64,000 bases of DNA from positions 17,314-81,313 of the forward strand of contig JAPDKE010000012.1 in the NCBI GenBank assembly GCA_029258725.1, in the 5' to 3' direction. A program made the translations under genes and the position numbers. Shown in pieces: positions 25,650 to 41,291 of the stretch (positions within the stretch are counted from its first letter, which is position 1; each line of letters begins with the position of its first letter). The notes under the pieces are model-generated. The model made no database searches. It had not been told where the DNA came from and saw only the letters and a list, made by a program, of their open reading frames with translations. Origin of the DNA: a bacterium. Its GTDB lineage: Bacteria; Hydrothermota; UBA3072; JAPDKE01.

Positions 25650-25903
25650 TTAAGCCTCACAAAGTCATCTGGTTCCGGATATTCAAACCCCAGACTTTCA
25701 GCCCTCGCCTCAAGAGAAAGAGGAGATGTGTGCTTCCGGTACATTCCCTGAAGTTTTACCACCTCTGCATGGAGGTACTGTCTCTCAAGTTCCAGTTTCT
25801 CAATCTCCCTCAACATCTCCATTTCTTTTCCTATCATCCACACCCTCAAAAGGGGTGGAAGGACAAAGGCAAAGAGAAGAAGAAAAGTCTTCATGTACCT
25901 CAT
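25646..25903 (-). CDS. ftsL: cell division protein FtsL
   Basis: 85 aa, single TM + coiled coil, position between rsmH and ftsI with ATGA overlaps. Confidence 0.7.
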   Translation of the reverse strand: MRYMKTFLLLFAFVLPPLLRVWMIGKEMEMLREIEKLELERQYLHAEVVKLQGMYRKHTSPLSLEARAESLGFEYPEPDDFVRLK

Positions 25904-26748
25904 AGCTTCTCCAGCACCCTCAGGTGGGCGCTTCTCGCCCTGGGATTTCTTTTTATTTCCTCCTTCCCTGGCCTTACCGGTTTTTTTGTGAGAAGTTTCA
26001 CATCATTTCTTTCCTTAATCACCTCCAGTGCTCTTTTTTCCTCCCCCGAGTGATAGGTTATGAAAATGAGTCTTCCATCTTTTTTCAGAAGTTCTATTCC
26101 TCCCTCTATTCCAAGTTTCACATTCTCCTCTTCTTCATTTATCGCCATCCTTATAGCCTGGAATACCCTTGCAACGAATTTATGTCCCTTTCTTCTCGGG
26201 CTTCTCTTTCTCACAACAAGGGCAAGTTCAAGGGTTGTCTTCGGAAGTTTCTTTTTTATGTCTCTTGCAATTACCTTCGCATTTGGAAGGTCACCGTATT
26301 TCCTCAAAATCTTTGCAAGTTCTTCAACCGAAACATTTTCAAGAAATTCCCGCGCAGTAATTCCTTTTCTTCCGAATCTCATGTCAAGGGGACCCTCTTT
26401 TCTGAACGAAAATCCTTTTTTCTCATCCTCAAGCTGGAAGGATGAAAGTCCAAAGTCAAAAAGGATGAGGTCAAATTTTGTCTTGAATAGATTTTTCACC
26501 GTTTTCATATCCCCGTTTACGAGCATAAATCTTCCCTCAAATCCCCTCAGATTTCTGGCCGCAATTCTCAGTGATGAAAGGTCAATGTCAAGCCCAACCA
26601 CCTTTGCCTGTGTATTTTCAAGCAGAGTCAGCATGTGCCCCCCTGTTCCTGCAGTTGCGTCAAGAAAGAGTCCCTCCTTTTTTGAAAAATTCAGCACCTC
26701 CTCTGCCATTACCGGTACATGTCTCAGAGGTCCAGTTCCTCCATCCAT
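25900..26748 (-). CDS. rsmH: 16S rRNA (cytosine1402-N4)-methyltransferase
   Basis: HVPVMAEEVL N-terminus and LDATAGTGGH SAM-binding motif. Confidence 0.9.
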   Translation of the reverse strand: MDGGTGPLRHVPVMAEEVLNFSKKEGLFLDATAGTGGHMLTLLENTQAKVVGLDIDLSSLRIAARNLRGFEGRFMLVNGDMKTVKNLFKTKFDLILFDFGLSSFQLEDEKKGFSFRKEGPLDMRFGRKGITAREFLENVSVEELAKILRKYGDLPNAKVIARDIKKKLPKTTLELALVVRKRSPRRKGHKFVARVFQAIRMAINEEEENVKLGIEGGIELLKKDGRLIFITYHSGEEKRALEVIKERNDVKLLTKKPVRPGKEEIKRNPRARSAHLRVLEKL

Positions 26749-27161
26749 TCCTCTATCTTTTCCTCAATTACCTCTTCCTTTTCCGCGTAAACTTCGGGGT
26801 TCCATATCTCTATCTTGTCAATCAGACCTATTATGAGTGCCTCCTTTTTTATCCCTGCATATTCAAGCAGATGTGCGGGGATGTTTATTCTACCCTGAGA
26901 ATCAATCGGGCATCTCTCTGCATAGGATACGAATTTTCTCAAAAGCCACCTCACCCTCTCCCTGGTATAGGGAAGGGAACGGAGACGCTCTTCAAACTCC
27001 GCCCAGATGGAAAGGGGATAAACCAGGAGTGAGCCATCAAATCCCCTTGTAACGACGAACGTCCCCTCATCCTCAGGCCTGAGGAGCCTGCGGAACTCCG
27101 CAGGTATAAAAAGCCTTCCCTTGTGATCAACACTGTACGTGTGCCTTCCAGTATATCTCAT
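26724..27161 (-). CDS. mraZ: transcriptional regulator MraZ
   Basis: Tandem DxxGR repeats (VDHKGRLFIP, IDSQGRINIP); start set at ATG 27161 (MRYTG...), supplied ORF begins at upstream GTG. Confidence 0.85.
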   Translation of the reverse strand: MRYTGRHTYSVDHKGRLFIPAEFRRLLRPEDEGTFVVTRGFDGSLLVYPLSIWAEFEERLRSLPYTRERVRWLLRKFVSYAERCPIDSQGRINIPAHLLEYAGIKKEALIIGLIDKIEIWNPEVYAEKEEVIEEKIEEWMEELDL

Positions 27162-27170
27162 TTTGCTTTC

Positions 27171-27225
27171 CCCACTTTTCCCCACTATTCACCACCACTA
27201 TACCGGAATAAATTTTATTTGTCAA
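27171..27225 (-). promoter_or_regulatory. Pmra: TTGACA-N17-TATAGT promoter followed by three GTGG(T/G) direct repeats at 10-bp spacing (putative MraZ operator)
   Basis: Minus-strand reading: CCCCTTGACAaataaaatttattccggTATAGTggtggtgaataGTGGGgaaaaGTGGGgaaagcaaaATG. Confidence 0.7.
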
Positions 27226-27289
27226 GGGGTAAAATAAATTTTTTTTAGCGGGGGTCAGACATTAACAGTTAACAATTTTAATCCTAATC

Positions 27290-27408
27290 TGAGCGATTTT
27301 TGTGGTTGAGGGATTATTGTTCTCTGCTATAATTCAGATATGGGTAAATTTCCAGGGTTGAGCCTGCTGGTGAGAGATGGAAAACCCGAGTGCACCTCAA
27401 AGGGGTTA
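27290..27408 (+). repeat. solo left-end remnant of the IS-like element at 62126 (16-bp TIR TGAGCGATTTTTGTGG + about 60 nt identical + conserved CACCTCAAAGGGGTTA)
   Basis: Direct comparison with 62126-62309; no matching right TIR nearby. Confidence 0.7.
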
Positions 27409-27585
27409 CCTTCTTTATGCCTGGTTTCTTTTTATCTTCCGATTCCATTTTCGGTATATGAAAAGAGGTAGAGGGATAAAACTCTGGAAGAAGTTTTCCT
27501 TGCTGGATCATGATCAGAAGTAATCGTTGCATTCACAGGCGGATTAAGATTCTGAGAAAAACAAATACAAAAATTATTAACCTCC

Positions 27586-28470
27586 TCATTTCTCACCTCC
27601 TTCCTCAAAAAGAACAGAAAGATCAGAAGGAAGCTCGTCAAAGGAAACATCTTTTGTCTTAACTCCTCCACCCGGAATAGGTAAATGAGGATCAACTCCA
27701 ATTCTTATTTTTCCGCTTGGAGGAGGTTTAGGAGTAGAAGAAAGAATAAAATATCCTGTCCATCTTTTTCCATTAATTTCCCCTTCTGCCTTTACCAGTT
27801 TTGTTCTCCCTGTCTCAACATCAACGAAGAAAAGATGCCGGTAATACCTATCACCTATCTTCTTTAATGTCTCTGCACCTACTATCTTACCATCAGAGGA
27901 TATCTCTATGCCAGATAAATCATGGACATAACTTCCCCTCGATACCATACGCCCCAGAGTATCATAAACCTCAATATTGCAAACACCAGCACTGTCACGA
28001 TAATAAACAAAAAACACATTGCCATCAGACGAAAACCCCACCCTCCAGTAATAAGTGGTCAATAAATCATCCCCAGGATAAACCCTGAAAGATTTCCTCC
28101 ATACCTCCCTGCCATCAGCCCGATACAGCACAAGAGAATAATCCCACCTCTCGCCCTCCTCAGGCATATCCCTCTCAACCCCAGGTGGATAATGCACCCT
28201 TATGGAAAACAACCTGTCCAGCACCAGACCCTTACCCTCATGAACATCAGCAATACACCTGCCATGGGTATGCCAGACATCCCCCTCCTTCTCAGTCCTG
28301 TGCTCCTCCCACTCCAGAACCTTAACAACCCTCCCATCAGGAGAGACAAATCTCACCTCACCCTCATATAACCCTTTCCCCTTCGTAACCTCTATCCTGT
28401 ACCCCTCAGGCTTTTCAACAGCCCCAGATAAAAGAAAAGCGAAAAAGAACAAAGTTATTACCTTCCTCAT
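27586..28470 (-). CDS. hypothetical secreted protein (beta-rich)
   Basis: Signal peptide MRKVITLFFFAFLLSGA; start at 28470 supported by AAGGAGG 5 nt upstream; in operon with ferredoxin gene. Confidence 0.6.
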   Translation of the reverse strand: MRKVITLFFFAFLLSGAVEKPEGYRIEVTKGKGLYEGEVRFVSPDGRVVKVLEWEEHRTEKEGDVWHTHGRCIADVHEGKGLVLDRLFSIRVHYPPGVERDMPEEGERWDYSLVLYRADGREVWRKSFRVYPGDDLLTTYYWRVGFSSDGNVFFVYYRDSAGVCNIEVYDTLGRMVSRGSYVHDLSGIEISSDGKIVGAETLKKIGDRYYRHLFFVDVETGRTKLVKAEGEINGKRWTGYFILSSTPKPPPSGKIRIGVDPHLPIPGGGVKTKDVSFDELPSDLSVLFEEGGEK

Positions 28471-28544
28471 TCCTGCCTCCTTCCCCCATTTTACCCATTC
28501 CTCCCTTTCATGGCAAGCCTCAGATTTTCCTCCATATTTTATTT

Positions 28545-28931
28545 TCAATCAGGATTATGGATGGGAGGGAAAGGATTTTGGAAGGACGATCTTTTCAAAA
28601 TCCCTTCTTCCTCGAGTTGCTTTTTCACAAGACTCAGTACTTTTCTCTTTTTTATCAGATCCCTTACATATTCAGGATCGGGAAAACTTATGGCTTCAAA
28701 TATACACCATACCTGACAGGAAGTACATCCGACCATACACTGGAGAGGTCTTGCCACAACAGCCTTCCTTCTCTCCCAGTCATAATCAAAAACCTTCCTT
28801 CCACAACTGGTGACACACATACCACATCCAGTACACCTGCTTTCATCAACCGTGGGATGCCAGGTTATCTCCTCCCTCGGTATACCCTTCCAGTAGGCAA
28901 ACTTTGGGTCCAGTTTTGTCTTCTCACCCAT
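28545..28931 (-). CDS. 4Fe-4S dicluster ferredoxin-domain protein
   Basis: Two Cys clusters CTGCGMCVTSC and CMVGCTSCQVWC. Confidence 0.7.
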   Translation of the reverse strand: MGEKTKLDPKFAYWKGIPREEITWHPTVDESRCTGCGMCVTSCGRKVFDYDWERRKAVVARPLQCMVGCTSCQVWCIFEAISFPDPEYVRDLIKKRKVLSLVKKQLEEEGILKRSSFQNPFPPIHNPD

Positions 28932-29029
28932 TTTCCACCTCCCTTTTATATATTTAAATATATGAATTTATAAATCAATGTCAAGGGGTTTCCGCTTTTG
29001 TGGGTAATTATTGGGGTGTTCACCGCCTC

Positions 29030-29058
29030 TTGACTTTCTGTGACTGCTTTTATATAAT
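29030..29058 (+). promoter_or_regulatory. sigma70-like promoter TTGACT-N17-TATAAT for sugar ABC transporter operon
   Basis: Hexamers read directly, about 110 nt upstream of ATG 29170. Confidence 0.55.
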
Positions 29059-29169
29059 CCAGTTATCTTCTGGGTTAATGAAAGAAGGGTAAAGAAGGGA
29101 GAGACATGGAAGGGCTTAAAAGGGATATCTTCCCTGAAACAGACGATAACCGGAAGGATTTAATAAGAG

Positions 29170-30438
29170 ATGCATAGGTTTGTTTTTTTCTCCATATTCT
29201 TTGGACTGATTTTCCTTAACTGTGAAAAGGGGCACCTCCTGACCATTGCTGTTGGTGGTGCACCGAACGAACTCGATTACTGGGAAAAACTCATCAGGGA
29301 GTTTGAAGAGAGAACAGGAATAAAGGTAAAGCTCATCCGCCAACCCACGGATACCGACCAGCGGAGACAGAGCCTTATCATCCCCTTAAAGGCAAAAAAG
29401 CCTGATCCTGATGTTTTCCTGATGGATATTGCCTGGCTGGGCGGATTCGCTGCATCTGGCTGGCTCCAGGCACTTGACGACTATGTTAAAAGAGATACGT
29501 TTGATTTGACAAAATTCTTTAAACCGGTGGTAACATCGGTGGATATCTATGAAGGCGCGCTTGTTGCCCTGCCTGTCTATATAGACTGCGGACTTCTGTA
29601 TTACCGGAAGGACCTGCTCGAAAAATACGGCTGCCCCGTGCCACGCACATGGGAGGAACTTCTCCAGGTGGCAACACTCATCCAGAAAAAGGAACGCACC
29701 AGGAATCCGCGGTTTTACGGATTTGTATGGCAGGGTGCTCAATACGAAGGGCTTGTATGCAATTTTTTGGAGTTCATAACATCAGCAGGTGGAGGACTCT
29801 TTGACAGTCTGGGAAATATAAACCTATGCTCCAAAACAAACATCCACGCCCTCACGTTCATGAAAGACCTTATCCATAAATACAAAATATCTCCACCGAA
29901 TACCTATACCGAGATGAAAGAAGAGGAGGTAAGGATATCCTTCCAGAACGGTGATGCACTCTTTGAGAGAAACTGGCCTTATGCCTGGAAACTCCATGAG
30001 AGCAATGATTCACCCGTTAAGGGAAAAATTGGAGTGACATTACTGCCCGCATTTAAAACAGGGAAAACCGCGTCAGCACTTGGTGGCTGGCATATCGGGA
30101 TATCGGCATATTCGGATAATAAAGAGCAGGCATGGCAACTTGTAAAATTCATCCTTTCCTATGAGTCCCAGAAACGACTTGCCATTGACCTGGGGTGGAA
30201 TCCGGGAAGAGAGGATGTCTACGAGGACCCTGAATTGAAACACAACCTCCCCCATATAAATGTGCTCAAAGAGTCTTTCAATCATGCCGTAGCAAGACCA
30301 AATGTTCCATATTATACCCGACTCTCCCAGATCCTTCAGATATATGTAAATGCGGCAATATCCGGGAGGATGGGACCAGAGGAAGCATTGAAAAAAGCAG
30401 AAGAAAAAATGCGCGAAATTATCCATACATATGAGTAG
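29170..30438 (+). CDS. ABC transporter extracellular solute-binding protein (family 1, sugar; MalE/trehalose-maltose-binding like)
   Basis: Signal peptide with Cys (IFLNCEKG), SBP family 1 architecture, followed by MalF/MalG/MalK-like genes. Confidence 0.8.
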   Translation: MHRFVFFSIFFGLIFLNCEKGHLLTIAVGGAPNELDYWEKLIREFEERTGIKVKLIRQPTDTDQRRQSLIIPLKAKKPDPDVFLMDIAWLGGFAASGWLQALDDYVKRDTFDLTKFFKPVVTSVDIYEGALVALPVYIDCGLLYYRKDLLEKYGCPVPRTWEELLQVATLIQKKERTRNPRFYGFVWQGAQYEGLVCNFLEFITSAGGGLFDSLGNINLCSKTNIHALTFMKDLIHKYKISPPNTYTEMKEEEVRISFQNGDALFERNWPYAWKLHESNDSPVKGKIGVTLLPAFKTGKTASALGGWHIGISAYSDNKEQAWQLVKFILSYESQKRLAIDLGWNPGREDVYEDPELKHNLPHINVLKESFNHAVARPNVPYYTRLSQILQIYVNAAISGRMGPEEALKKAEEKMREIIHTYE

Positions 30439-31294
30439 AGAATTCCGGACGGCATTACCCTTTCTCCTCCCCCTTGTATTCGTTGTTTCCGTGTTCATGC
30501 TGTTTCCTGTCATCGGCACATTCTGGATGAGCCTCTGGCAGGATGTCTCGTTTCTCCCGCGCAAATTCGTTGGGCTCTCCCACTATCTGAGGTTGTTCAG
30601 GGATACTGGATTCTGGCAGTCTGCGGCCTTCACTCTCCTTTTCACCTTTGTCTCCGTAGCGGTGGAGACCATGCTTGGATTGTTTATGGCATTGCTTGTC
30701 AACGAACAATTCAGGTTCAGAGGTCTCATGCGTGCAGTAATGCTACTCCCATGGGCAATCCCGAGCGTTATCGGTGCACGGATATGGCAGCTCATCTACA
30801 GGTATGACTATGGGCTTGCAAATTATGTGCTTCAAAAGATTTCAGGGAAGGTTGTGAACTGGCTTGGTAGCAGCACGGGTGCATTCCTTTCACTTATCAT
30901 AGCCGACGTCTGGCGGACAACCCCATTCGTTGCAATCATACTTCTTGCCGGACTGCAGGTCATCCCTGATGAGATTTACCGTCAGGCAAAGGTGGATGGG
31001 GCAACGCTTTTTCAGCGGTTTTTCAGGATAACCCTGCCGCTCTTAAAGCCCATTCTCATAGTAGCAGTTCTCTTCAGGACCATTGATGCGCTTCGGGTGT
31101 TTGACATTATCTATGTTATAACCGGAGGCGGACCAGGTGGTGCCACAACCTCGCTGTCGCTTTACGGATATAAATATTTTCTGCTTGGCGACTTCGGATA
31201 CGGCTCGGCTATTTCAATATCGCTCTTCCTCCTCGCGCTGTTTATAGCATTGCTTTACATAAAAACAGGTAGATTTAAAGAAGCGGTGCTGTGA
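30431..31294 (+). CDS. sugar ABC transporter permease (MalF/UgpA-like)
   Basis: 6 TM, EAA-like loop (IYRQAKVDGATLFQRFFRITLP). Confidence 0.85.
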   Translation: MSREFRTALPFLLPLVFVVSVFMLFPVIGTFWMSLWQDVSFLPRKFVGLSHYLRLFRDTGFWQSAAFTLLFTFVSVAVETMLGLFMALLVNEQFRFRGLMRAVMLLPWAIPSVIGARIWQLIYRYDYGLANYVLQKISGKVVNWLGSSTGAFLSLIIADVWRTTPFVAIILLAGLQVIPDEIYRQAKVDGATLFQRFFRITLPLLKPILIVAVLFRTIDALRVFDIIYVITGGGPGGATTSLSLYGYKYFLLGDFGYGSAISISLFLLALFIALLYIKTGRFKEAVL

Positions 31295-32115
31295 GAGAAG
31301 AGGCAATAAAAAGGTTCTTGCTGGTAACCGGTGTGATATGGTTGCTCATTTTCTCCCTCATCCCTTTCCTGTGGATGGTGATTATTTCCTTCAGCAGTTC
31401 CCCTGATTTCCTGGTAAGGGGTGAAGGTTCGTTCACGCTTAAGAACTATATAGATATCATAACAATAAAGACACTCCATTTCCCCGACTATTTAAAAAAC
31501 AGCGGGATTATCGCAGGACTTTCCGCATTATTCGCCACCATTATCGGGGCGTTCGCCGGTTATGCGGTCTCACGGTTTCGCTTCAGAGGACGGCTCCCAC
31601 TGATAATGTGTGTTCTGGGTCTATCAATGTTCCCGCAGATAAGCATGGTTGGGTATCTCTACAGAATGATGAGCATGCTTGGCTGGATAAACACCTATCC
31701 TGCTCTCATTCTGCCTTATACTGCATGGGGGCTCCCCTTGGCACTGTGGATGCTCCTCAGCTATTTTTCACAGATTCCTCAGGAGATAGACAGGGCAGCA
31801 CTGGTTGACGGAGCCAGCAGATTGCAGATATTGCGAAAGATAATCCTGCCACTCGCATTACCGGGCCTGGTCTCCACCTATCTTCTGCTCTTCATTTTCT
31901 CTTTTAATGAATTCCTTTTCGCACTCATGCTTACCACCGACCATCACGCCAGAACAGTCCCGGTGGGCATAGCACTTTTCCAGGGTTTGCATGGCGAACT
32001 CCCATGGGGTTATATAATGGCCGCCTCAACCATCTCCTCTCTCCCTGTCGTCCTGATTGTGCTTTTCTTCCAGAGATACATAATCCAGGGGCTCACAGGG
32101 GGTGCAGTGAAATGA
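31291..32115 (+). CDS. sugar ABC transporter permease (MalG/UgpE-like)
   Basis: 6 TM, EAA loop (EIDRAALVDGASRLQILRKIILP). Confidence 0.85.
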   Translation: MREEAIKRFLLVTGVIWLLIFSLIPFLWMVIISFSSSPDFLVRGEGSFTLKNYIDIITIKTLHFPDYLKNSGIIAGLSALFATIIGAFAGYAVSRFRFRGRLPLIMCVLGLSMFPQISMVGYLYRMMSMLGWINTYPALILPYTAWGLPLALWMLLSYFSQIPQEIDRAALVDGASRLQILRKIILPLALPGLVSTYLLLFIFSFNEFLFALMLTTDHHARTVPVGIALFQGLHGELPWGYIMAASTISSLPVVLIVLFFQRYIIQGLTGGAVK

Positions 32116-33215
32116 GGACCTGCAGTTTAAAAATAAGGAATTTAACCAAACGATTCCGCAGTATCTACCGGGAAGTTACCGCACTCAAAGACATCAATCT
32201 GGAGGTTGAAGAAGGGGAATTTTTCGTAATACTGGGTCCTTCGGGTTGTGGGAAATCAACATTTCTCAATATTCTTGCCGGACTTGAGAAACCGGATAAG
32301 GGAAAGGTGTGGTTTGGTAACAGACTTGTTGTTTCGGTAGAAGACGGTCTCTTTCTCAGCCCGCGCGAACGCAATGTTGCAATGGTTTTTCAATCCTACG
32401 CACTTTACCCGCATATGAACGTATTTGAGAATATCGCATTTCCATTAAGGGTGGCCGGGTTGCCAGGTGAGGAGATAGAGGTGCGTGTGAACAGGGTGGC
32501 AGGAATGCTTGATATAGCGGAGTTGCTTCATTCCAGACCCCGTGAACTCTCCGGCGGGCAACGCCAGCGGGTGGCTATTGCTCGTGCACTGGTTCGTAAC
32601 CCTTCAGTCTTTCTACTGGATGAACCTCTCTCCAACCTTGATGCACAGCTCAGACAGAAAATGCGTGCAGAACTCAAGGCGTTACAGCGCGAACTCAGGG
32701 TTACCACTCTTTATGTTACACACGACCAGGTGGAGGCAATGACGCTCGGTGACAGGATTGCGATATTAAAAGATGGTGAAGTGCAGCAGGTTGGTAACCC
32801 ATTGGAGATTTATCATAACCCATCAAACATCTTTGTTGCAGGATTTATCGGAACACCACCCATGAATCTCCTGAAAGCCAGAGCCATCATGGAACATGGT
32901 TCATGCTTCTTGAAGATTGGTGATATAAAGATAAAAATCAAGGCGGAGGTGGTGAAGGGCAAAGAGATAATAATGGGTATAAGGCCTGAAGATATTGAGG
33001 TGGTTAAAGAGCCTGTGACCGGCTCGTTTGAGGTTAGAATAACTCTTGTTGAGCACCTGGGGACGGAGAGCATTCTTCATACAAACATAGGAAAAAACAG
33101 GCTGCTTATAAAACTCAAGGAAGACGTGGATTACAGGGAAGGCGATAGGGTCAGAATTTTGATAAGACCGGAAAAAATACATCTTTTTGATGAAAATGGT
33201 AAATCTTTAAGGTGA
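32112..33215 (+). CDS. sugar ABC transporter ATP-binding protein (MalK/UgpC-like)
   Basis: Walker A GPSGCGKST, signature LSGGQRQRVAIARAL, Walker B FLLDEPLSNLD, C-terminal TOBE-like domain; start at ATGA overlap (MRTCSLKIRNLTKRF). Confidence 0.9.
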   Translation: MRTCSLKIRNLTKRFRSIYREVTALKDINLEVEEGEFFVILGPSGCGKSTFLNILAGLEKPDKGKVWFGNRLVVSVEDGLFLSPRERNVAMVFQSYALYPHMNVFENIAFPLRVAGLPGEEIEVRVNRVAGMLDIAELLHSRPRELSGGQRQRVAIARALVRNPSVFLLDEPLSNLDAQLRQKMRAELKALQRELRVTTLYVTHDQVEAMTLGDRIAILKDGEVQQVGNPLEIYHNPSNIFVAGFIGTPPMNLLKARAIMEHGSCFLKIGDIKIKIKAEVVKGKEIIMGIRPEDIEVVKEPVTGSFEVRITLVEHLGTESILHTNIGKNRLLIKLKEDVDYREGDRVRILIRPEKIHLFDENGKSLR

Positions 33216-33227
33216 ACCGTATTTACT

Positions 33228-34442
33228 TCAAGATTTGCAGATATCGCTTAAGATATCAAGATGGTCCAGGATAAGTCTTGTTATAAGGAATTTCTCTCTT
33301 ACCATCTCCCTGCCCCTTTCACCCATCTTCTTTGCGAGTTCAGGGTCCTGCAGAATTTTTATAATCTTTTCTGCGAATTTTTCGGTATCGTGGGGTTCCA
33401 CCAGGAATCCATTCACACCGTCTTTTATCTGAATAGGAATCCCCCCAACATTTGAACCCACGACTGGTTTCCCTTTCCATAATGCCTCGGTTACAGCAAG
33501 TCCAAACCCTTCCCTTATCGACTTCTGAATTATCACAGCAGAACTTCGCTGAAGGCTGTTCACAAGAATGTGATTTTCGGTGGTAATCAGTATAACATCC
33601 TCATTTTTTATTAAATCTCTGGCTTTCAGCATTACCTTATGGAAAATCCTGTGGGATTCAGGGTCATCTGTTGCCTGACTCCCGCACAAAACAAGTCTGC
33701 AATCCACCTCCTTTTTAACAATTTTAAATACATCTATGACTCCAAGTGGGTCCTTCCATTTATCAAATCTTGCTACCTGGGTTATGAGCGGTTTATCCGT
33801 TCTTATTCCAAATTTTTTCAGATATTTCAGGACAACACTCTCTGGAATTTCTTTATTTTTTGGACTGAGAGGATCAATGGCCGGATAAACAACCCTCTGT
33901 TCTACCGGGAGGTCTTTTATCCGGTACTTCTCACTGGATAAAATTACAAGGTCGTATCCTGATATATATTCCATCAGGAAATCCAGGACTTCGGGATCCG
34001 GGTTAGAGAGTTCCACATGGCAGCGCCATATCCAGGGTTGCTTTTTTTCGTAGAATTTTATTAAAGGCAATGGCTGGGGGTCATGAATGATAACCGCATC
34101 ATGGAGTATATGTGTGTATATGGAAAATATTTCGTTGGTTTCTTCGTATATTCGTTTTTTTATTTTTGTAAGGTTGATTTTATCACCCTGTAAAGCATGA
34201 TGGAATTTTTTGGTTATGGTGAAGAAGTCAGGGGTTCCATGGAGTATCCTCCAGCCCACTTTAATTCCTGCAGAATTCATGAGCGGGATAAGGCTATTCA
34301 GCATCTCTGCCACGCCACCACCTTGATAGGTGGAGTTGATGTGCAATATATGTCTCCCCCTGAGAGCTTCTGCCTTTCTGTATATCTCCTCAATAACCTC
34401 ATCTCCAACGATTCTCCGGTAATCTTCAAGAGATGGCTTCAT
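33228..34442 (-). CDS. treT: trehalose glycosyltransferring synthase (GT4)
   Basis: Strong recall-level similarity to Thermococcales TreT: HINSTYQGGGVAEMLNSLIPLM, TKKFHHALQG, WIWRCHVELSNPD, SIREGFGLAVTEALWKGKPVVG. Confidence 0.8.
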   Translation of the reverse strand: MKPSLEDYRRIVGDEVIEEIYRKAEALRGRHILHINSTYQGGGVAEMLNSLIPLMNSAGIKVGWRILHGTPDFFTITKKFHHALQGDKINLTKIKKRIYEETNEIFSIYTHILHDAVIIHDPQPLPLIKFYEKKQPWIWRCHVELSNPDPEVLDFLMEYISGYDLVILSSEKYRIKDLPVEQRVVYPAIDPLSPKNKEIPESVVLKYLKKFGIRTDKPLITQVARFDKWKDPLGVIDVFKIVKKEVDCRLVLCGSQATDDPESHRIFHKVMLKARDLIKNEDVILITTENHILVNSLQRSSAVIIQKSIREGFGLAVTEALWKGKPVVGSNVGGIPIQIKDGVNGFLVEPHDTEKFAEKIIKILQDPELAKKMGERGREMVREKFLITRLILDHLDILSDICKS

Positions 34443-36654
34443 CTTCTCCCCCTTTTTGACACATGCTTTTTAACAGCCCTCTTACCTTCTCCACAGATTC
34501 TATGTAAAATCTGGCACGCGTAAGACCCAAACCAACTTTAATGGAATACGCAGTATCAGGGAGGACTCCAAAAACATCCTCATCGGTCATATCATCCCCT
34601 ATTGCCAGTATAAAATCCCACTGTTTTTTTGAAATCCATTTCAATACGGCTCTCCCTTTGTTTATATTTGTGTTTTTGATTTCAATTACTTTGTTGCCCT
34701 CCATAATACCAATATTAAGATTGGCAGTAAGGTTCAGAAGAACATCCTTCAACTCCTTCACCCTGACATCTGCTAATTCCGCATCGCAATTCCGATAGTG
34801 CCAGACAAGAGAAAACTCCTTTTCTTCTATAAAAGAGCCCGGGGTCCTGTCCACATACAGCTCAAGGATCGGCAATATTTCCTTTTTCCAGGTATCTTCC
34901 AGGGGCTCTATTATTTCCCACTCCCCGCCCCTTTCCTTTATCCATGCACCATGTTCTGCAACCAACCCTATATTCAAATCCCCAAACCACCTGTCCAGGG
35001 TTTCTCTCTCCCTGCCACTTATGATTACAACCTCATTTTTCACCTGATGGGCTAAAGAGGATAAAAGCTCCATGAGTTCTTCAGAAGGCTTTGCCTTTTC
35101 TGGTTTTTCCATAAAATGAACAAGCGTCCCATCATAATCCAGGAAGATAAGGCGGGTGTTGCTCTTTGAGTAATCGTTTAAGAGCTGGGTTTTTATCTCA
35201 TCCGTAAGCCTCTTGGTCCGCAAATCCTGCTGAAGTTTTTTGATATGTATTAAGGTTTCAACAAAATCCATTGCCCATCGTTTTACATTGTATCTTTTCA
35301 ATCTTCTCTGCATCGCTTTATTCCGCTCTATCTGTTCCTCTTCCGTCATCAACAGTGCCTCCCTTAAGGCATCTGCAATTGTTTCTCTGTTGTTTGGATT
35401 GACTATAATAGCCTCCCCCATCTCTTCTGCAGCACCTGCCATTTCACTGAGGATAAGAACTCCTTTAGAATCAGATTTGGAGGCAATGAATTCCTTGGCA
35501 ATCAGATTCATTCCGTCTCTCTGTGGAGTCACCAGAGCAATATCAGCAATGTTGTAGAGGGCCGCAAGCCTATGAAATGGCAGAAAACGATAGATATAAC
35601 GTATTGGTGTCCATCCCAAAGTTCCGTGTTTTCCATTTATTTTGCCTATCAGTTCGTCCACCTCTTTTTTCAGCAATCTGTAATGCTCTACTTTTGTCCG
35701 CGAAGGGACTGCAACAATAATAAATATTACTTTCTCCTTAAATTCCGGATACTTCTCCAGGAACAGGTCGAAAGCCTCCAGTCGCTGAGGTATGCCCTTT
35801 GTGTAGTCAAGCCTGTCAATTGAAAGAACTATCCTGTAGTCTCCCAGGGTTTTGCAGACCTTATCAATCTCTTTTTTCACTTTGGGGTCTGATGCAGCGT
35901 TCGCAAATTTCTCGTAATCAATACCCATAGGAAAGGAATCCACTTTTATCACCCTGTTATCAATTGTTATCTCTCCATATGCATGTTCGTAGCCCAGGAT
36001 CCGCCGAACACTCTCAAGAAAATGTTTGACATAGCTGTAGGTGTGAAACCCGATGAGATCCGCTCCTGAAAGCCCTTCCAGAATTTCCCTTCGCCATGGA
36101 AGCACACGAAAGATTTCAAAGGATGGGAATGGAATGTGAAGGAAAAATCCTATCATGGCATCTGGCAATTTCTCCCTTATAAGTTTTGGAAGGAGCATCA
36201 GGTGATAATCATGTATCCAGATAATATCATCGGCATTCGCAATCTCAGAGAGTTTCTCGCAGAAAATCCCGTTCACCTGCTGGTAAGCATACCACAATTT
36301 TTTATCAAAGGTTGTGTATTGCAGAAAATAGTGGAAGAGCGGCCAGATTGTTTTATTGCAGAAGCCGTTGTAATATAAATCCACATCTTTTTGAGTCAGT
36401 AAGACAGGATGACAGGAAAATTCTCTGTTCAGCCTCGTTTCCATAATTTTTCTTTCATTCTCATTGAGCCTCTCAGAAAAAATCCCCGGCCATCCAATCC
36501 ATGTAACATTATTGTAAGACTTATAAAATGAACTGAGCCCGGTGGATAATCCACCAACACTGGGATTGAAACTCAATCCATTTTTCCTTTTTGTGACCGT
36601 AACCGGTAACCTATTAGAAACAATTATTATCCTTTTCATGAGATTCCACTCCAC
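34426..36654 (-). CDS. bifunctional trehalose-6-phosphate synthase/phosphatase (OtsA-OtsB fusion, GT20 + HAD)
   Basis: N-terminus IIVSNRLPV (GT20), C-terminal HAD motif FLDYDGTL and GDDMTDEDVF; 742 aa. Confidence 0.9.
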   Translation of the reverse strand: MEWNLMKRIIIVSNRLPVTVTKRKNGLSFNPSVGGLSTGLSSFYKSYNNVTWIGWPGIFSERLNENERKIMETRLNREFSCHPVLLTQKDVDLYYNGFCNKTIWPLFHYFLQYTTFDKKLWYAYQQVNGIFCEKLSEIANADDIIWIHDYHLMLLPKLIREKLPDAMIGFFLHIPFPSFEIFRVLPWRREILEGLSGADLIGFHTYSYVKHFLESVRRILGYEHAYGEITIDNRVIKVDSFPMGIDYEKFANAASDPKVKKEIDKVCKTLGDYRIVLSIDRLDYTKGIPQRLEAFDLFLEKYPEFKEKVIFIIVAVPSRTKVEHYRLLKKEVDELIGKINGKHGTLGWTPIRYIYRFLPFHRLAALYNIADIALVTPQRDGMNLIAKEFIASKSDSKGVLILSEMAGAAEEMGEAIIVNPNNRETIADALREALLMTEEEQIERNKAMQRRLKRYNVKRWAMDFVETLIHIKKLQQDLRTKRLTDEIKTQLLNDYSKSNTRLIFLDYDGTLVHFMEKPEKAKPSEELMELLSSLAHQVKNEVVIISGRERETLDRWFGDLNIGLVAEHGAWIKERGGEWEIIEPLEDTWKKEILPILELYVDRTPGSFIEEKEFSLVWHYRNCDAELADVRVKELKDVLLNLTANLNIGIMEGNKVIEIKNTNINKGRAVLKWISKKQWDFILAIGDDMTDEDVFGVLPDTAYSIKVGLGLTRARFYIESVEKVRGLLKSMCQKGGEDEAIS

Positions 36655-36737
36655 GTTATTTTACCCATAAGGGTAAATTGAAGATACAATAAATTCCTGA
36701 ACCTGTCAAGTTAGCAAAGGGGTAGGGGGCAAGAGGG

Positions 36738-37454
36738 TTATTTTCCCGCTGCAAGCCTCTCGGCTAAATACGGATGCAGTCCTGCATCAAGAATCTTCCG
36801 CTGGGCAATCTCAATGGGATAGGGAACCCTCCTTATCTCAATTCTATCCTCTCTCAAGATGCAGTAACATGCCCTGGGGTCCCCATCCCTTGGCTGTCCC
36901 ACGCTCCCAACATTGACAAGGTATCTCACATCTTCCATTATCTCCACCTCATCCTCAAAAATAACCCCATGTCTTTTTTCTCTTTCAATGAATATAACCG
37001 GATGATGGGAATGTCCGTGGAAACAGATTTTTTCACGGAAGAACATGAATTCCCTTATCGCATCTCCAAGCGTGAGAATGTAATCAAAGGAAGCAGGATT
37101 TGAGGGAACTGCATGGACAAGAAGGTTCTTCCCGATGTGCATGGTGAGCGGAAGTTTCCTCAAAAATTCCAGATTTTCGGGCTTTATAACCCTCATGGTC
37201 CACTCAATCGCCTCCTTTGCAACTGGATTGAAGTATTGAAGGGACATTTTCCCTGTCACTGCATAGTCGTGGTTCCCTGCAACACATGGAATATTCCTCT
37301 CCCTCACTATCTCAACACACTCATTGGGATCTGCCCCGTATCCCACCACATCCCCGGCGCAGTAAATCTCTTTTATCCCCTCTTTCTCAATATCCTCAAG
37401 AACTGCCTGAAATGCCTCAAGATTTCCGTGAATATCCGAGATTATTGCTATCAA
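36738..37454 (-). CDS. metallophosphoesterase (YfcE/MJ0936-like)
   Basis: SDIHGN, GDVVGYG, GNHD motifs. Confidence 0.8.
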   Translation of the reverse strand: MIAIISDIHGNLEAFQAVLEDIEKEGIKEIYCAGDVVGYGADPNECVEIVRERNIPCVAGNHDYAVTGKMSLQYFNPVAKEAIEWTMRVIKPENLEFLRKLPLTMHIGKNLLVHAVPSNPASFDYILTLGDAIREFMFFREKICFHGHSHHPVIFIEREKRHGVIFEDEVEIMEDVRYLVNVGSVGQPRDGDPRACYCILREDRIEIRRVPYPIEIAQRKILDAGLHPYLAERLAAGK

Positions 37455-37855
37455 AGCAACCCCTCAAGTTTTGCAATTCTGTCAAGGACCCCGTTTACAA
37501 ACCTGCTTGAATCATGGGTTGAGTATTGCTTTGAGAGTTCTATCGCCTCGTCTATGGTCACCTTCGGGGGTATCTCGGGAAAAAATAAAAATTCCGAAAC
37601 GGCAAGCCTGAGAATCGCCCGGTCCGTCTCCGCAAGCCTTTCAAAATCCCAGTTTTCAAGCACGTTTTTTATCTTCTCATCTATAAGCCTTATATTCTCA
37701 TATGCCTTTTTAACAAGAGAAAGTGCAAAATCAACAACATCCTGAGGCTCACCATGCACAAGTTCCAGGACTATCTTTTCCGGTTCCTCCTCCCTCAGGG
37801 CATATCCATAAAGTCCCTTGAATGCAAGTTCCCTCGCCCTTCTCCTACTTCCCAT
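37451..37855 (-). CDS. nusB: transcription antitermination factor NusB
   Basis: RRARELAFKGLYGYAL N-terminus; ribH-nusB adjacency. Confidence 0.85.
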   Translation of the reverse strand: MGSRRRARELAFKGLYGYALREEEPEKIVLELVHGEPQDVVDFALSLVKKAYENIRLIDEKIKNVLENWDFERLAETDRAILRLAVSEFLFFPEIPPKVTIDEAIELSKQYSTHDSSRFVNGVLDRIAKLEGLL

Positions 37856-38309
37856 CTATCTCCCGTGAGAGGTTCACGAGCTCCAGGAGGGAAAGGGCGG
37901 CGTCCCATCCCTTATTCCCTGCCTTCATTCCAGCCCTTGAAAGCGCCTGTTCCTCGGTGTCTGCGGTGATTATCCCGAAGGCTATGGGAGTATTCCCCTC
38001 AAGCGCAAGTTTCCCGAGCCCACGGGTAACCTCGGATGCAATGTACTCAAAGTGGGGAGTATCTCCCCTTATAACCGCACCAAGGGCAAGTATTCCATCG
38101 TGCCTGTTCATCACCTTCTTAACCACAAAGGGAATCTCAAAGGAACCAGGAGTCCAGTAAATCGTAACATCATTCACACCATGCCTTCTCAGGCAGTCAA
38201 GCGCTCCCTCAAGCAGATGGTGCGAAATATGGGAATTAAAACGGGATACAACTATCCCTATCCTTATCCCTTTCCCTGTGAGTTTTCCTTCAATCTCCTT
38301 TCTCTGCAT
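37845..38309 (-). CDS. ribH: 6,7-dimethyl-8-ribityllumazine synthase
   Basis: RIGIVVSRFN motif, 154 aa. Confidence 0.9.
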   Translation of the reverse strand: MQRKEIEGKLTGKGIRIGIVVSRFNSHISHHLLEGALDCLRRHGVNDVTIYWTPGSFEIPFVVKKVMNRHDGILALGAVIRGDTPHFEYIASEVTRGLGKLALEGNTPIAFGIITADTEEQALSRAGMKAGNKGWDAALSLLELVNLSREIDGK

Positions 38310-38338
38310 ATAACCTCCTTTTCAATCTTTTATAAAAA

Positions 38339-38413
38339 TCGGGGCGAGTGGATTTGAACCACCGACCTCCTGGTCCCGAACCAGGCGCGCTAACCAGGCT
38401 GCGCTACGCCCCG
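38339..38413 (-). tRNA. tRNA-Pro (anticodon CGG), no encoded CCA
   Basis: Manual cloverleaf: acceptor CGGGGCG, anticodon stem CCUGG/CCAGG, loop UUCGGGA, T-arm GGUUCAAAUCC. Confidence 0.85.
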
Positions 38414-39057
38414 TTTTCTTTCCAGCCCTCCTTCCCGATGAGGGGGACAAATGTGCAACCAAAGAGTTCTTCTTTTATCATTCTTCCATTTTCCTTCCTC
38501 ACCAGTGTGAGGGTCTGGTAACCCCATGCACCCACAGGTATCACCATTCTTCCCCCCTCATCGAGCTGCTCAAAAAGGGAAGGTGGAACCTCAGGAGCAC
38601 CCGCTGTAACAATTATTCCCTGGTAGGGTGCCTCCTTTTTCCACCCCAGGGTTCCATCCCCCACTATAAATATTATATTTGTGTATCCCAGCTCTGTCAA
38701 GCGTCTCTCTGCCTTTCTCAAAAGCGTTTCTATTCTCTCAACGGTAACAACAAGCGAGGCAAGTTCCGCGAGGATTGCAGTCTGGTATCCACTTCCCGTC
38801 CCTATCTCAAGAACCTTATCGGTTTCTTTTATCTCAAGAAGCTCTGTCATGACTGCAACCATGTATGGCTGGGAGATGGTCTGCCCCTCACCTATGGGGA
38901 GCGGGGTATCTGCATATGCCATGTCTTCAAACTCAGGAGGGACAAAAAGATGCCTGGGGACCCTGAGCATTGCCTGAAGCACACGCTCATCGCGCACACC
39001 CCTTGCCCTTATCTGCGTCTCCACCATCCTTTCCCTTTCGTACTTATAATCCCTCAA
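38404..39057 (-). CDS. pcm: protein-L-isoaspartate O-methyltransferase
   Basis: VLEIGTGSGYQTAILAEL SAM motif; surE-pcm pairing; last 3 codons overlap 5' end of tRNA-Pro. Confidence 0.85.
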   Translation of the reverse strand: MRDYKYERERMVETQIRARGVRDERVLQAMLRVPRHLFVPPEFEDMAYADTPLPIGEGQTISQPYMVAVMTELLEIKETDKVLEIGTGSGYQTAILAELASLVVTVERIETLLRKAERRLTELGYTNIIFIVGDGTLGWKKEAPYQGIIVTAGAPEVPPSLFEQLDEGGRMVIPVGAWGYQTLTLVRKENGRMIKEELFGCTFVPLIGKEGWKENGA

Positions 39058-39796
39058 TCTCCTGCTCCCATCTTTTGAGTTTTTCTATGGTGGGAAAGTC
39101 CGTGAGGTTGAGATGGAGCGGGGTTATGGAAATGTATCCTTCCTCAATTGCAGAAAAATCGGTTCCATCCTCTGGAATCCATGATGGAGGCTCCCCTCCA
39201 AGGATATAGTATCTTTTCCCGTCCTTCCCTATCTTCTCAATCACCGTATCCCGGTAAACTCTTTTTCCCAGGCGGGTTATTTTTATGCCCTTGACCTCTT
39301 CTGGAGGGATATCGGGAATATTCACATTTAAAAGAATACCATGGGGTAATCCCTCACGCAGGACCTTTGCTGCAATCTTTTTTGCATAAATCCTTGCTGT
39401 TTCCTCGTTTCTGATTTCCCTTCCAACCATGGAAAATGCAACCGATGGAATTCCAAGTATCATTCCCTCAAATGCTGCTGCAACGGTCCCTGAGTATGTC
39501 ACATCTTCTCCGAGATTCGCCCCGTGGTTTATTCCAGAAAGGACAAGTTTTGGTTTCTCCGGAAGGATTCCTCGAACCGGATAAAGCACGCAGTCTGTTG
39601 GAGTTCCATCGGTGACATAAACCCTTTCCTCAACCCTTTCAATGTAAATGGGTCTGTGCATGGTGAAGGAATGACTCATTGCGCTTCTTTCCCTGTCTGG
39701 GGCAAATACCCATACCTCGTCCAGGTCCTGGACCGCCTTCCTTAATATTGAAAGTCCCTTTGCCTGTATTCCGTCGTCGTTGGTTATGAGTATCAT
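39044..39796 (-). CDS. surE: 5'/3'-nucleotidase SurE
   Basis: MILITNDDGI N-terminus, 250 aa. Confidence 0.9.
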   Translation of the reverse strand: MILITNDDGIQAKGLSILRKAVQDLDEVWVFAPDRERSAMSHSFTMHRPIYIERVEERVYVTDGTPTDCVLYPVRGILPEKPKLVLSGINHGANLGEDVTYSGTVAAAFEGMILGIPSVAFSMVGREIRNEETARIYAKKIAAKVLREGLPHGILLNVNIPDIPPEEVKGIKITRLGKRVYRDTVIEKIGKDGKRYYILGGEPPSWIPEDGTDFSAIEEGYISITPLHLNLTDFPTIEKLKRWEQEIEGL

Positions 39797-40455
39797 AAAA
39801 GAAGGAGCCTTATCGCAAGTTTGAGAAATCTCAGGGTGTCAATGAATGGATTTATCCTGCTCTTTCTTCCAGGCTCATACACCGTGCTTATGGGAACCTC
39901 ACCTATCCTAAATCCCATCCTTGCAGCCTTCACTATGATCTCTGTCTCTGTCTGAAACCTTGTGGTGGTGAGGGGGACTTTTTCCATGACTGCTTTTTTT
40001 ATAAGCCTGTATCCACACTGTGAATCCGATACCCTGACTCCTGCAAGAAGGGATGTAATAAGGGAGGTTGTCCGATTCGTCCAGTACCTGACAACAGGAG
40101 AGTTCCTTATGGTTATGTCTCTTTTTCCGATAACAAGGTCGTATTCCCCTGCATGAAGAAATCTCTCAAGTTCCTCCGGTTTGTGCTGACCATCCGCATC
40201 CATGGTTATTGCTGCATCGTATCCATGCCCACACACCCATCTGAATCCTGTTCGGTGTGCCATTCCCTTTCCCATGTTTTTCTCATGGGATACGACATTC
40301 ACCCCGAGTTTCTCTGCTATCTCCCTTGTTCTGTCCCTGGAACCATCGTCAACCACCAGGATATCCTCAGGAGGTACATATTCCATCACCTTCCTCAGGG
40401 TTTTTTCTATCTTTTTCTCCTCATTATATGCAGGTATGATTATACAGTACCTCAT
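39793..40455 (-). CDS. family 2 glycosyltransferase (polyprenol-phosphate sugar transferase-like)
   Basis: IIIPAYNEEKKIEKTL, VVDDGSRDRT, DADGQH motifs. Confidence 0.75.
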   Translation of the reverse strand: MRYCIIIPAYNEEKKIEKTLRKVMEYVPPEDILVVDDGSRDRTREIAEKLGVNVVSHEKNMGKGMAHRTGFRWVCGHGYDAAITMDADGQHKPEELERFLHAGEYDLVIGKRDITIRNSPVVRYWTNRTTSLITSLLAGVRVSDSQCGYRLIKKAVMEKVPLTTTRFQTETEIIVKAARMGFRIGEVPISTVYEPGRKSRINPFIDTLRFLKLAIRLLLL

Positions 40456-41273
40456 AGCGGTTCAAAAAGATACCACTGGGCTGGATATTTTCTCACATAT
40501 CTTTCCATTATTCTCACCCATTCCTCAAGTGCGTCCGGACGGGAAACGTCAAGGGGTGGCTCAAAGTAAACATGATACCTTCCATCCCTTTCCTTCACGT
40601 TGAACGCAGGGACAAGAACAGAACCGAGTTTCCTTGCAAGTTCTATCCCTCCTATGGGTATTTTCACTTTCTTTCCGAAGAATTCAGCCTCCTTTCCGGT
40701 TCCTGTGAAGTCCCTGTCTCCAAGCAGTGCAAGCATCTCTCCCTTTCTTAAAACCCTTATACTTTCTCTTGCCGCCTCCCTCAGGAAAACAACCCTCATT
40801 CCTGCGGTTTCCCTTCTTTTCCGGTAGTATTCAACAAACCAGGGTGAGCGATAGGGAAGGGCTATTACCGTAAGTCTGCATCCTGAAAGTGAAAGAAAGG
40901 CTGCCCCCCATTCCCAGTTTCCCAGGTGCATGGTCTGGATGATGACCCCCTTCCCTTCCTCCATGAATTTTTTAACCTTCTCAAATCCATGGGGGGTCAT
41001 GAATTTGTGAAGGTTTCTTTTGTTTATTTTTGGTAACAAGAGAAATTCGTAGATGAATTCTGCAAAGTTCCTGAACCCCTCTCTTGCAAGTTTCTTTATT
41101 TCCCTTTCGCCTTTCTCAGGGAAAACAAGTTTTATATTGGAAATCCATGCATCCCTTCCCTTCCTGTAAACCGTGTAGTAGCAGAAGTCTGCAATTCTTC
41201 TTGTAACAAATCTTGCAACAGGAATGGGAAGGACATGCGAAAGACCTGTTATAATGAGATAAAAAAACCTCAT
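40452..41273 (-). CDS. lysophospholipid / lipid A-type acyltransferase (LpxL/HtrB family)
   Basis: N-terminal TM, HLGNWE (HX4E-like) acyltransferase motif; start set at MRFFYL (41273) to avoid tRNA. Confidence 0.6.
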   Translation of the reverse strand: MRFFYLIITGLSHVLPIPVARFVTRRIADFCYYTVYRKGRDAWISNIKLVFPEKGEREIKKLAREGFRNFAEFIYEFLLLPKINKRNLHKFMTPHGFEKVKKFMEEGKGVIIQTMHLGNWEWGAAFLSLSGCRLTVIALPYRSPWFVEYYRKRRETAGMRVVFLREAARESIRVLRKGEMLALLGDRDFTGTGKEAEFFGKKVKIPIGGIELARKLGSVLVPAFNVKERDGRYHVYFEPPLDVSRPDALEEWVRIMERYVRKYPAQWYLFEPL

Positions 41274-41291
41274 GGTGTTTTTATAAAGAAG

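Follow-up and report, generated by a model that had tools for sequence, protein, structure and literature searches.

Trehalose synthesis genes and a sugar importer stand side by side in the 64-kb stretch of contig JAPDKE010000012.1 analysed here (the window), and the question raised by this locus is whether the importer was acquired from outside or belongs together with the enzymes. The locus consists of six genes: a four-gene ATP-binding cassette (ABC) importer on the plus strand and, converging with it on the minus strand, treT and a gene that codes for trehalose-6-phosphate synthase and phosphatase as one fusion (TPS/TPP; the fusion protein is referred to as TPSP). The initial annotation had regarded the transporter as a foreign insertion. 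This was not supported, as the codon anomaly is shared by all six genes, the operon was found in 28 of 80 related loci, the trees were in agreement and no signs of mobility were detected. The sequence data speak somewhat in favour of the six genes being one trehalose-homeostasis module that has long been associated with the WOR-3/Sumerlaeota group of bacteria and is an ancient resident of its host.

Organization of the trehalose locus

The positions and strands of the genes and of the candidate promoters were determined to be:

29030..29058, plus strand: candidate sigma-70-like promoter of the transporter operon, TTGACT-17-TATAAT (11/12 consensus matches only)
29170..30438, plus strand: substrate-binding protein (SBP) of TMBP type, probable lipoprotein, 422 aa
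30431..31294, plus strand: ABC permease 1 (P1), MalF/GlcT-like, 287 aa; 8-nt overlap with the SBP gene
31291..32115, plus strand: ABC permease 2 (P2), MalG-like, 274 aa; 4-nt overlap with permease 1
32112..33215, plus strand: ABC ATPase with a MalK-type OB/TOBE C-terminus, 367 aa; ATGA overlap with permease 2
33216..33227: gap of 12 nt between the convergent stop codons
33228..34442, minus strand: TreT, trehalose glycosyltransferring synthase (GT4), 404 aa
34426..36639, minus strand: TPSP, fused trehalose-6-phosphate synthase (GT20) and phosphatase (HAD), 737 aa
36681..36709, minus strand: candidate sigma-70-like promoter of TPSP-treT, TTGACA-17-TATCTT (10/12 consensus matches only)

The start of the ATPase was placed at ATG 32112 and not at 32004 as in the list of open reading frames (ORFs); the length of 367 aa was also obtained by the gene callers on identical contigs. 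For TPSP, ATG 36639 with GGAG before it was preferred over GTG 36654. The 3' end of the TPSP gene extends over the start of treT by 17 nt (34426-34442), and both this overlap and the 12-bp convergent gap, which had been described initially, are exact by the coordinates. The earlier description of two trehalose routes, the TPS/TPP fusion and TreT, beside a sugar ABC transporter was likewise in agreement with the family scans. The promoter candidate of the transporter precedes the SBP start by about 110 nt, and that of TPSP-treT is located within the 98-nt spacer between a metallophosphoesterase gene and TPSP. No terminator-like hairpin was detected in the 12-nt convergent gap, and no Rfam elements were found in the leaders of the two units.

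Trehalose synthesis enzymes

TreT matched the Pfam families TreT_GT1 (PF21269) and Glycos_transf_1 with 192 bits (cut-off 27) and 121 bits (cut-off 26.4), respectively. The score against the TreT of Thermoproteus uzoniensis (6ZJ4) was 372 bits, and the identity to Pyrococcus horikoshii TreT (2X6Q) was 46% over 394 residues. Glu311 of the window TreT corresponds in the alignment to a Glu for which a variant P. horikoshii chain (2XA2/2XA9/2XMP) has Ala; this Glu is position 326 as counted by hand from the printed alignment. With the NCBIfam model TreT_Thcocales (NF041139), 403 bits were obtained, which is below the cut-off of 775. The shortfall excludes the narrow Thermococcales orthologue group, the target of the model by its name, and not the enzyme family. 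TreT is classed as a GT4 enzyme (PMC11046441).

TPSP was assigned to the bifunctional TPS/TPP family PRK14501 of NCBIfam with 1058 bits (cut-off 634). Its two halves were recognized by the OtsA model TIGR02400 (591 bits, cut-off 564.85) and the T6PP model TIGR00685 (149 bits, cut-off 68.05), and the Pfam domains GT20 and Trehalose_PPase occupy residues 8-468 and 504-701, respectively. The translation contains VSNRLP, HDYHL, FLHIPFP, RLDYTKG and RDGMNLIAKE, which we take, without an alignment, to be OtsA/GT20 catalytic motifs, as well as FLDYDGTL and GDDMTDED, which presumably are those of HAD-IIB. Judged by family matches, each part of the locus is a known type of enzyme or transporter, and no new biochemistry is predicted.

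The importer

The SBP matched Pfam SBP_bac_1 with 170 bits. The best match among solved structures was the trehalose/maltose-binding protein (TMBP) of Thermococcus litoralis (1EU8), with 534 bits and 59% identity over 400 residues. Cys18 of the SBP is invariant in 26 aligned homologues. Both permeases belong to Pfam BPD_transp_1. Permease 1 had sub-threshold NCBIfam matches to GlcT/UgpA/MalF and 66-71% identity to the permeases of WOR-3/Sumerlaeota modules, and permease 2 had sub-threshold matches to MalG/GlcU and 66-70% identity to its relatives. In the ATPase, the Pfam domains ABC_tran, OB_MalK and TOBE_2 were detected, and the NCBIfam UgpC-subfamily model was matched with 433 bits (cut-off 432). 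The best Protein Data Bank matches of the ATPase were 2D62, a sugar ATPase of P. horikoshii (401 bits), and T. litoralis MalK 1G29 (386 bits). It has no close relative, the best being 62% (a metagenome-assembled genome of Desulfofervidus) and 63% (a WOR-3 chromosome) identical.

An SBP that aligns end-to-end with TMBP, two BPD_transp_1 permeases and an ATPase with OB/TOBE domains place the transporter among CUT1 importers of the TMBP-MalFGK type. The 59% identity to TMBP, together with the linkage to TPSP/TreT in 28 loci, suggests that the SBP binds trehalose and maltose. Orthology to the E. coli-type MalEFGK was rejected, since all four NCBIfam equivalogs scored below their cut-offs: MalE 81 bits (291), MalF 100 (392), MalG 115 (261) and MalK 374 (568). 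The term 'MalEFGK-like' of the initial annotation is therefore best read as resemblance only.

The nearest neighbours of SBP and MalK had been proposed as a check of foreign origin. Thermococcales proteins were the top matches among solved structures, and the nearest relatives of the SBP and the permeases in genomes were of WOR-3/Sumerlaeota. The best solved-structure matches are archaeal, and such matches are decided by the choice of crystallised proteins.

Recurrence of the operon in related genomes

An alignment of 26 binding proteins was used for one scan of the GTDB species representatives, resulting in 80 genomes with the closest SBP homologues. The related loci (designated L with a number) were mapped by tblastn with the window proteins. 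TPSP and/or TreT were found beside SBP-P1-P2 in 28 of the 80 loci, and both were present in 20; several of the remaining loci are truncated at contig ends. The 28 linked loci include WOR-3, Sumerlaeota, TA06, Elusimicrobia and Pirellulales genomes. In these relatives TPSP and TreT were always on the transporter strand, the sole exception being an opposite-strand TreT paralogue (TreT-B, see below) in L012. The usual order, TPSP-SBP-P1-P2-TreT, was observed in WOR-3, Stahlbacteria, Hydrothermota and TA06. The order was TPSP-SBP-P1-P2-ATPase-TreT in L006, SBP-P1-P2-ATPase-TPSP-TreT in Sumerlaeota L009 and L018, and TPSP-TreT-MscS-SBP-P1-P2 in one Pirellulales genome. Start/stop overlaps were common, e.g. 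the 4-nt TPSP/SBP overlap in L007, and indicate translational coupling.

Among these loci, an opposite-strand TPSP-TreT pair was detected only in the window, where the order otherwise equals that of Sumerlaeota L009 and L018. The window arrangement would correspond to the Sumerlaeota-type order after an inversion of TPSP-TreT. A search for inverted repeats able to mediate the inversion resulted in only short, chance-level matches.

Neighbour-joining trees were constructed for SBP+P1+P2 (994 columns), TreT and TPSP; these are rough, midpoint-rooted trees with no bootstrap support. In all three, the neighbours of the window were WOR-3, Stahlbacteria, Sumerlaeota and TA06 sequences, of which nearly all have TPSP/TreT in linkage. 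Sumerlaeota was interleaved with WOR-3. In the rough tree of TreT, the phylogeny that had been suggested as a check, the window sequence was inside the WOR-3/Sumerlaeota/TA06 clade. The nearest homologues of the module proteins were those of WOR-3/Stahlbacteria/Sumerlaeota with 57-71% identity, which is the same group as that of the MurC matches of the host.

The SBP family was 54-66% identical across many phyla, Thermococcaceae included (58%), and this flat similarity is due to the slow evolution of the transporter family. The Thermococcaceae SBP groups with Caldisericales/Synergistota (69%) and not with the window clade (58%), and derivation of the window module from the Thermococcales cassette was rejected on these grounds. 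Of the echo of a mobile mal/treT cassette proposed in the initial annotation, the homology to the Thermococcales malEFG-treT-malK remained, whereas the SBP was found to be in a different subclade. From the sequence groupings, the Thermococcales mal/treT cassette is a cousin of the window module and not its source or copy.

Accessory genes were observed inside several modules. MscS genes were found in L010 (2623-3675), L016 (11073-12176), L025 (14180-15241), L046 (14151-15206) and L068 (8842-9891), the bearers being WOR-3 (including Stahlbacteria), Sumerlaeota and Pirellulales genomes; no MscS match was obtained in the window by tblastn or by family scans of its genes. The Elusimicrobia module L035 (9000-9872, 14080-16221) contains a GGDEF diguanylate cyclase, a CdaA c-di-AMP cyclase (DAC+YbbR) and a DHH/DHHA1 phosphodiesterase, by which second-messenger genes are linked with trehalose genes. 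By analogy, the accessory MscS and c-di-AMP genes of the relatives point to a possible osmotic or stress function.

TreT-B, mentioned above, forms a second TreT clade, about 42% identical to the window TreT. A DUF5752 gene was always directly upstream of TreT-B, in WOR-3, Elusimicrobia and TA06 (L025 17487-19350, L046 17418-19278, L035 16235-18095, L012 7723-9574), which suggests that DUF5752 works with this paralogue. In several WOR-3 and TA06 genomes, TreT is succeeded by two ORFs of about 150 aa and 213 aa (L020 14327-15430, L012, L021, L027 and L039); in L015, only the ORF of about 150 aa was present. In L020, the only locus scanned, these ORFs code for a NifU_N-like protein and a metallophosphoesterase. 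The metallophosphoesterase of the window (36738-37454), directly upstream of TPSP, was not detectably orthologous to the one of L020.

Codon usage

The codon usage was compared with a background comprising the 50 other genes of the 64-kb window only. The CGN/(CGN+AGR) ratio of Arg codons was 0.42 in the transporter genes versus 0.15 in the background (odds ratio 4.0, Fisher p=3e-8), and NCG codons amounted to 37 versus 27 per 1000 (p=0.04). The excess of CGN and NCG codons in the transporter, as described in the initial annotation, was confirmed by these values. The CGN ratio of TreT and TPSP was also raised (0.29, odds ratio 2.3, p=0.005), with CGN, NCG codons and GC content at third codon positions (GC3) being highest in the transporter genes.

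By a leave-one-out likelihood test of synonymous codon use, z values of -4.9, -5.2, -5.0, -5.4, -3.6 and -7.2 were obtained for the six genes, and the background resulted in a mean z of -0.1 with a sd of 1.5. TreT and TPSP were as strong outliers as the transporter in overall synonymous usage. The contrast that had been drawn between the transporter and the adjacent trehalose genes did not hold, as all six genes are outliers with a shared direction. The codon deviations of the transporter and of TPSP/TreT were correlated with r=0.57, against 0.11 +/- 0.26 for random gene sets, and the per-gene correlations among the six genes were 0.23-0.71, against 0.11 +/- 0.20 for background genes versus the module. 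In both the transporter and TPSP/TreT, AAA, GGC and GAA were commoner and AGG, GGA, CTT and GTT rarer.

The deviation of the module was opposite to that of FtsZ (r -0.37) and penicillin-binding protein (PBP; r -0.34), and an expression-linked axis is therefore possible instead of foreign origin. Other genes of the window, unrelated to the module, were about as deviant: 627-3458 with z -4.4 and 57421-57771 with z -4.5. As the former is as deviant as the module, codon heterogeneity in the window is not unique to the module; it codes on the plus strand for a 943-aa TMEM260-like O-mannosyltransferase/tetratricopeptide-repeat protein.

In 42 loci of the relatives, the module genes showed no CGN enrichment relative to the flanks of the same locus (mean difference -0.05, with positive values in 31%), and most relatives had 50-75% CGN. 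A CGN excess intrinsic to these gene families was ruled out, since the relatives show none.

The host and its conspecific contigs

The window is bacterial and contains the full dcw cluster (mraZ to ftsZ), nusB, ribH, surE, gltX, nrdD and prfB. The best named matches of its MurC were from candidate division WOR-3 (63-65%), and the best unnamed match was 67% identical. Eleven dcw proteins had a mean identity of 47% (37-67%) to four relatives fetched from the top MurC matches, and the host is therefore a deep branch without a close sampled relative. The 10-kb flanks of these four relatives stop at mraZ, and none of their accessions is a module-bearing locus. The host is a deep-branching, thermophile-like bacterium nearest to the WOR-3/Sumerlaeota group.

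The module is present in every one of five conspecific metagenome contigs (99.4-99.98% identity). The composition of the module proteins was no less thermophile-like than that of the other window proteins; the ATPase ranked 1st of 33 by IVYWREL and TreT 2nd of 25 by charged-minus-polar bias. Mesophile-like module proteins were ruled out by this amino-acid composition test.

Origin of the module

No integrase, transposase or insertion sequence (IS) was detected by family scans among the genes at 25900-41333, and no direct repeats flanking the module were found. Codon-typical housekeeping genes lie between the module and the tRNA-Pro genes at 38339 and 41291. Genes of the right flank were found near the transporter elsewhere: NusB and metallophosphoesterase adjoin the module in WOR-3 L025 and L046, in a clade that contains Eisenbacteria, acyltransferase-GT2-SurE come directly after SBP-P1-P2, and Fibrobacterota L081 has PurD close to the transporter. 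In 15 syntenic pairs of the clade containing Eisenbacteria, the transporter identity was calibrated, with r=0.70, as 0.63 x flank identity + 33.4. Applied to the window-versus-clade pairs, whose flank identity is 42%, the calibration predicts a transporter identity of 59-61%, and 57-59% was observed. The closeness of the two values supports co-inheritance of the transporter with its flanks.

That only the transporter is foreign, a relative of the archaeal mobile mal/treT cassette placed beside native trehalose genes, is very improbable. The highest CGN, NCG and GC3 values were indeed those of the transporter genes, and its best solved-structure matches were Thermococcales proteins. However, these matches mirror which proteins were crystallised, TreT and TPSP are equally strong synonymous outliers, the transporter forms one operon with TPSP/TreT in the 28 related loci with concordant trees, and signatures of mobility are lacking among the features searched. 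The Thermococcaceae SBP is only 58-59% identical to that of the window and belongs with Caldisericales/Synergistota at 69%. A transfer of the transporter alone is largely refuted by these results.

A transfer of the whole six-gene module, or the replacement of a resident copy by recombination, is possible but rather unlikely. The donor would be a WOR-3/Sumerlaeota-type module bearer, CGN-richer and less CpG-depleted, and the anomaly would reflect incomplete amelioration. This explanation accords with the mutually correlated codon deviations of all six genes and with the modules of relatives, which do not deviate from their flanks in genomes that mostly have 50-75% CGN. It is also in line with the reduced density of single-nucleotide polymorphisms (SNPs) in the module, with the SBP identity of 54-66% across many phyla (Thermococcaceae 58%), with module identities above most dcw identities to the nearest relatives and with the documented transfer of the Thermococcales version (PMC4158304). 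On the other hand, no integrase, IS element or direct repeats were found and the boundary of the module does not coincide with the tRNA-Pro genes; the best module homologue is at most 71% identical, so that no donor was identified; the neighbourhood is conserved in three other lineages; and the transporter divergence equals the prediction from the flank genes. The protein composition is already thermophile-like, and the codon deviation, being opposite to that of FtsZ and PBP, may be expression-linked.

Several observations weigh against ancient residence of the module. The synonymous anomaly of the six genes is strong and specific to this genome, and the within-species SNPs were 1.7-2.9 per kb in the module versus 3-8 in the flanks, although the counts are small. 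Identities to the nearest homologues are 57-71% for the module proteins, compared with the dcw mean of 47%; this comparison is blurred by the different rates of the families. The codon background is limited to 50 genes of one window, the neighbour-joining trees carry no support values and the rate calibration is extrapolated below its fitted range. Of the two findings named in the initial annotation as arguing against acquisition, best matches within the host lineage were obtained, whereas codon statistics similar to the background were not. Atypical codons in a 64-kb window were insufficient to call a gene foreign; here, operon partners and synteny pointed the opposite way.

Proposed function

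In a resident trehalose-homeostasis module, TPSP and TreT would synthesise trehalose, and the lipoprotein-anchored TMBP-type importer would take up external trehalose and probably maltose too, or alternatively recapture trehalose leaked or released by the cell. Through synthesis and import combined, trehalose might build up in the cell and protect it against stress; the relatives would add MscS as a release valve. In this genome, where TPSP-TreT is inverted relative to the Sumerlaeota-type order, there are two convergent units, and a promoter-like site precedes each of them. Predictions from sequence comparison are the substrates and the direction in which TreT works, as well as the role in salvage, the function under stress and the inversion as the event of rearrangement.

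The importer and TreT could instead be a catabolic pair for which trehalose/maltose is a carbon source, with TPSP serving separately for stress synthesis. TreT would then operate in reverse, converting trehalose and NDP to NDP-glucose and glucose, as proposed for T. litoralis and Thermotoga maritima. The same linkage in the Thermococcales cluster malE-malF-malG-treT-trmB-malK (PMC4158304), the co-regulation and trehalose induction of treEFG and treT in T. maritima (PMC3750489) and the separate promoter-like sites of the two window units are consistent with such a pair. In the operons of the relatives, however, translation of the SBP gene is coupled to that of the biosynthetic TPSP and MscS and c-di-AMP genes co-occur, and in the window treT is coupled to TPSP and not to the transporter. 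Furthermore, the TreT of Thermoproteus tenax is unidirectional towards synthesis (PMC3634074), and no trehalase or phosphorylase was found among the window genes by family scans. We consider the catabolic pair unlikely. That TreT could run catabolically by analogy with T. litoralis and T. maritima (PMC3750489) nevertheless counts against the homeostasis module, while a catabolic direction fits poorly with the operon coupling of treT to TPSP.

By analogy with the known systems, the operon might even be an undescribed self-contained osmostat of WOR-3/Sumerlaeota-type bacteria, by which trehalose is made, released and recaptured and in which TreT is also a physical partner or activator of TPSP. 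This proposal, which covers TPSP, the TMBP-type importer and TreT with or without MscS, DUF5752 and c-di-AMP enzymes, is speculative and is regarded as improbable.

Other features of the window

The prfB gene (release factor 2; 6454-7503, plus strand) contains the canonical +1 programmed frameshift at CTT TGA with GGGAGG before it. Translation starts at ATG 6454 and continues in the +1 frame with EIEKKKEKL to the stop at 7503; the ORF list shows the last 222 aa only. A 5S rRNA gene was detected at 58601-58717 (minus strand, 108 bits), and no 23S or 16S rRNA match was found anywhere in the window. The 751-aa ORF beside it (58840-61095) had no family match.

A 65-nt intergenic repeat with a TATAAT-like box occurs in two copies of 95% identity, 35 kb apart (27283-27347 and 62119-62183). 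Each copy is followed, at different spacing, by a 35-nt repeat of 86% identity (27472-27506, 63117-63151). One of the 65-nt copies is upstream of mraZ, and the SNP density in the strain comparison is highest in the intergenic stretch around it.

Between mraZ and the module, 27586-28931 (minus strand) codes for a 320-aa protein without a family match and a 128-aa 4Fe-4S ferredoxin-like protein. Neither had a homologue in any of the 80 related loci, and both genes are mild outliers in codon use, with z values of -2.2 to -2.5. A 21-nt insertion at 28607, with several differing sites nearby, was observed in strain L002.

The two tRNA-Pro genes (38339-38413 and 41291-41366, minus strand), with the anticodons CGG and GGG, are located in the nusB-ribH-pcm-surE-acyltransferase stretch. 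They are 86% identical over 86 nt, the similarity reaching about 10 nt past each tRNA.

Comparison with known systems

What is new in the locus is the combination: a TPS/TPP fusion, TreT and a high-affinity-type importer in one operon across several uncultivated phyla. In a limited literature search, no paper describing an operon of TPSP, importer and TreT was found. In the genome papers of Sumerlaeota, trehalose/maltose transporters are related to osmoadaptation, and this operon is not mentioned (PMC8092238, PMC10866078). Two model systems known from archaea, the malEFG-treT cluster of Thermococcales and the TPSP operon of T. tenax, come together in the module, which raises the questions of whether the importer serves for the salvage of self-made trehalose and whether TreT cooperates with TPSP.

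With the Thermococcales TM cluster malE-malF-malG-treT-trmB-malK (PMC4158304), the module shares a homologous SBP, two permeases, an OB/TOBE ATPase and a linked TreT, and SBP-P1-P2-TreT, the Thermococcales order, is at the same time the one seen most often in the bacterial relatives. In contrast to that cluster, the window module is without the TrmB regulator and the IS element and includes the TPS/TPP fusion; its TreT is only 46% identical, and treT, being coupled to TPSP, lies on the other strand.

The TreR regulon of T. maritima, treEFG and treTR, is another case of a bacterial thermophile linking a trehalose ABC transporter with a TreT-family enzyme (PMC3750489). It differs in being involved in trehalose utilisation, in its ROK-family repressor, in its separate operons and in the absence of TPSP (PMC3750489). 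The score of T. maritima MalE3 (6DTQ) with the window SBP was only 320 bits.

Uptake systems that recapture a self-made solute are LpqY-SugABC of mycobacteria for trehalose and TeaABC of Halomonas for ectoine. TeaABC is a TRAP system, and neither of the two is known to be in an operon with the synthesis genes. LpqY and SugC were detectable but distant homologues of the window SBP and ATPase and belong to different transporter subfamilies.

T. tenax has an msc-gt-tpsp operon whose GT4 protein forms a complex with TPSP and activates it there, and in 2013 no comparable operon was reported outside Thermoproteus and Pyrobaculum, two genera of Thermoproteales (PMC3634074). The common feature is a fused TPSP gene adjoining a GT4-family gene, with the 17-nt TPSP/treT overlap in the present case. 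The MscS gene has its parallel in the operons of L010, L016, L025, L046 and L068 and not in the window. The T. tenax GT is PimA-like, of a different GT4 subgroup and distinct from the TreT of that organism, whereas the partner here is of the TreT family (PMC3634074); moreover, an ABC importer belongs to the bacterial module. If the osmostat proposal were true, the TreT-TPSP pair would correspond in bacteria to the trehalose synthase complex of T. tenax, the only one known from prokaryotes.

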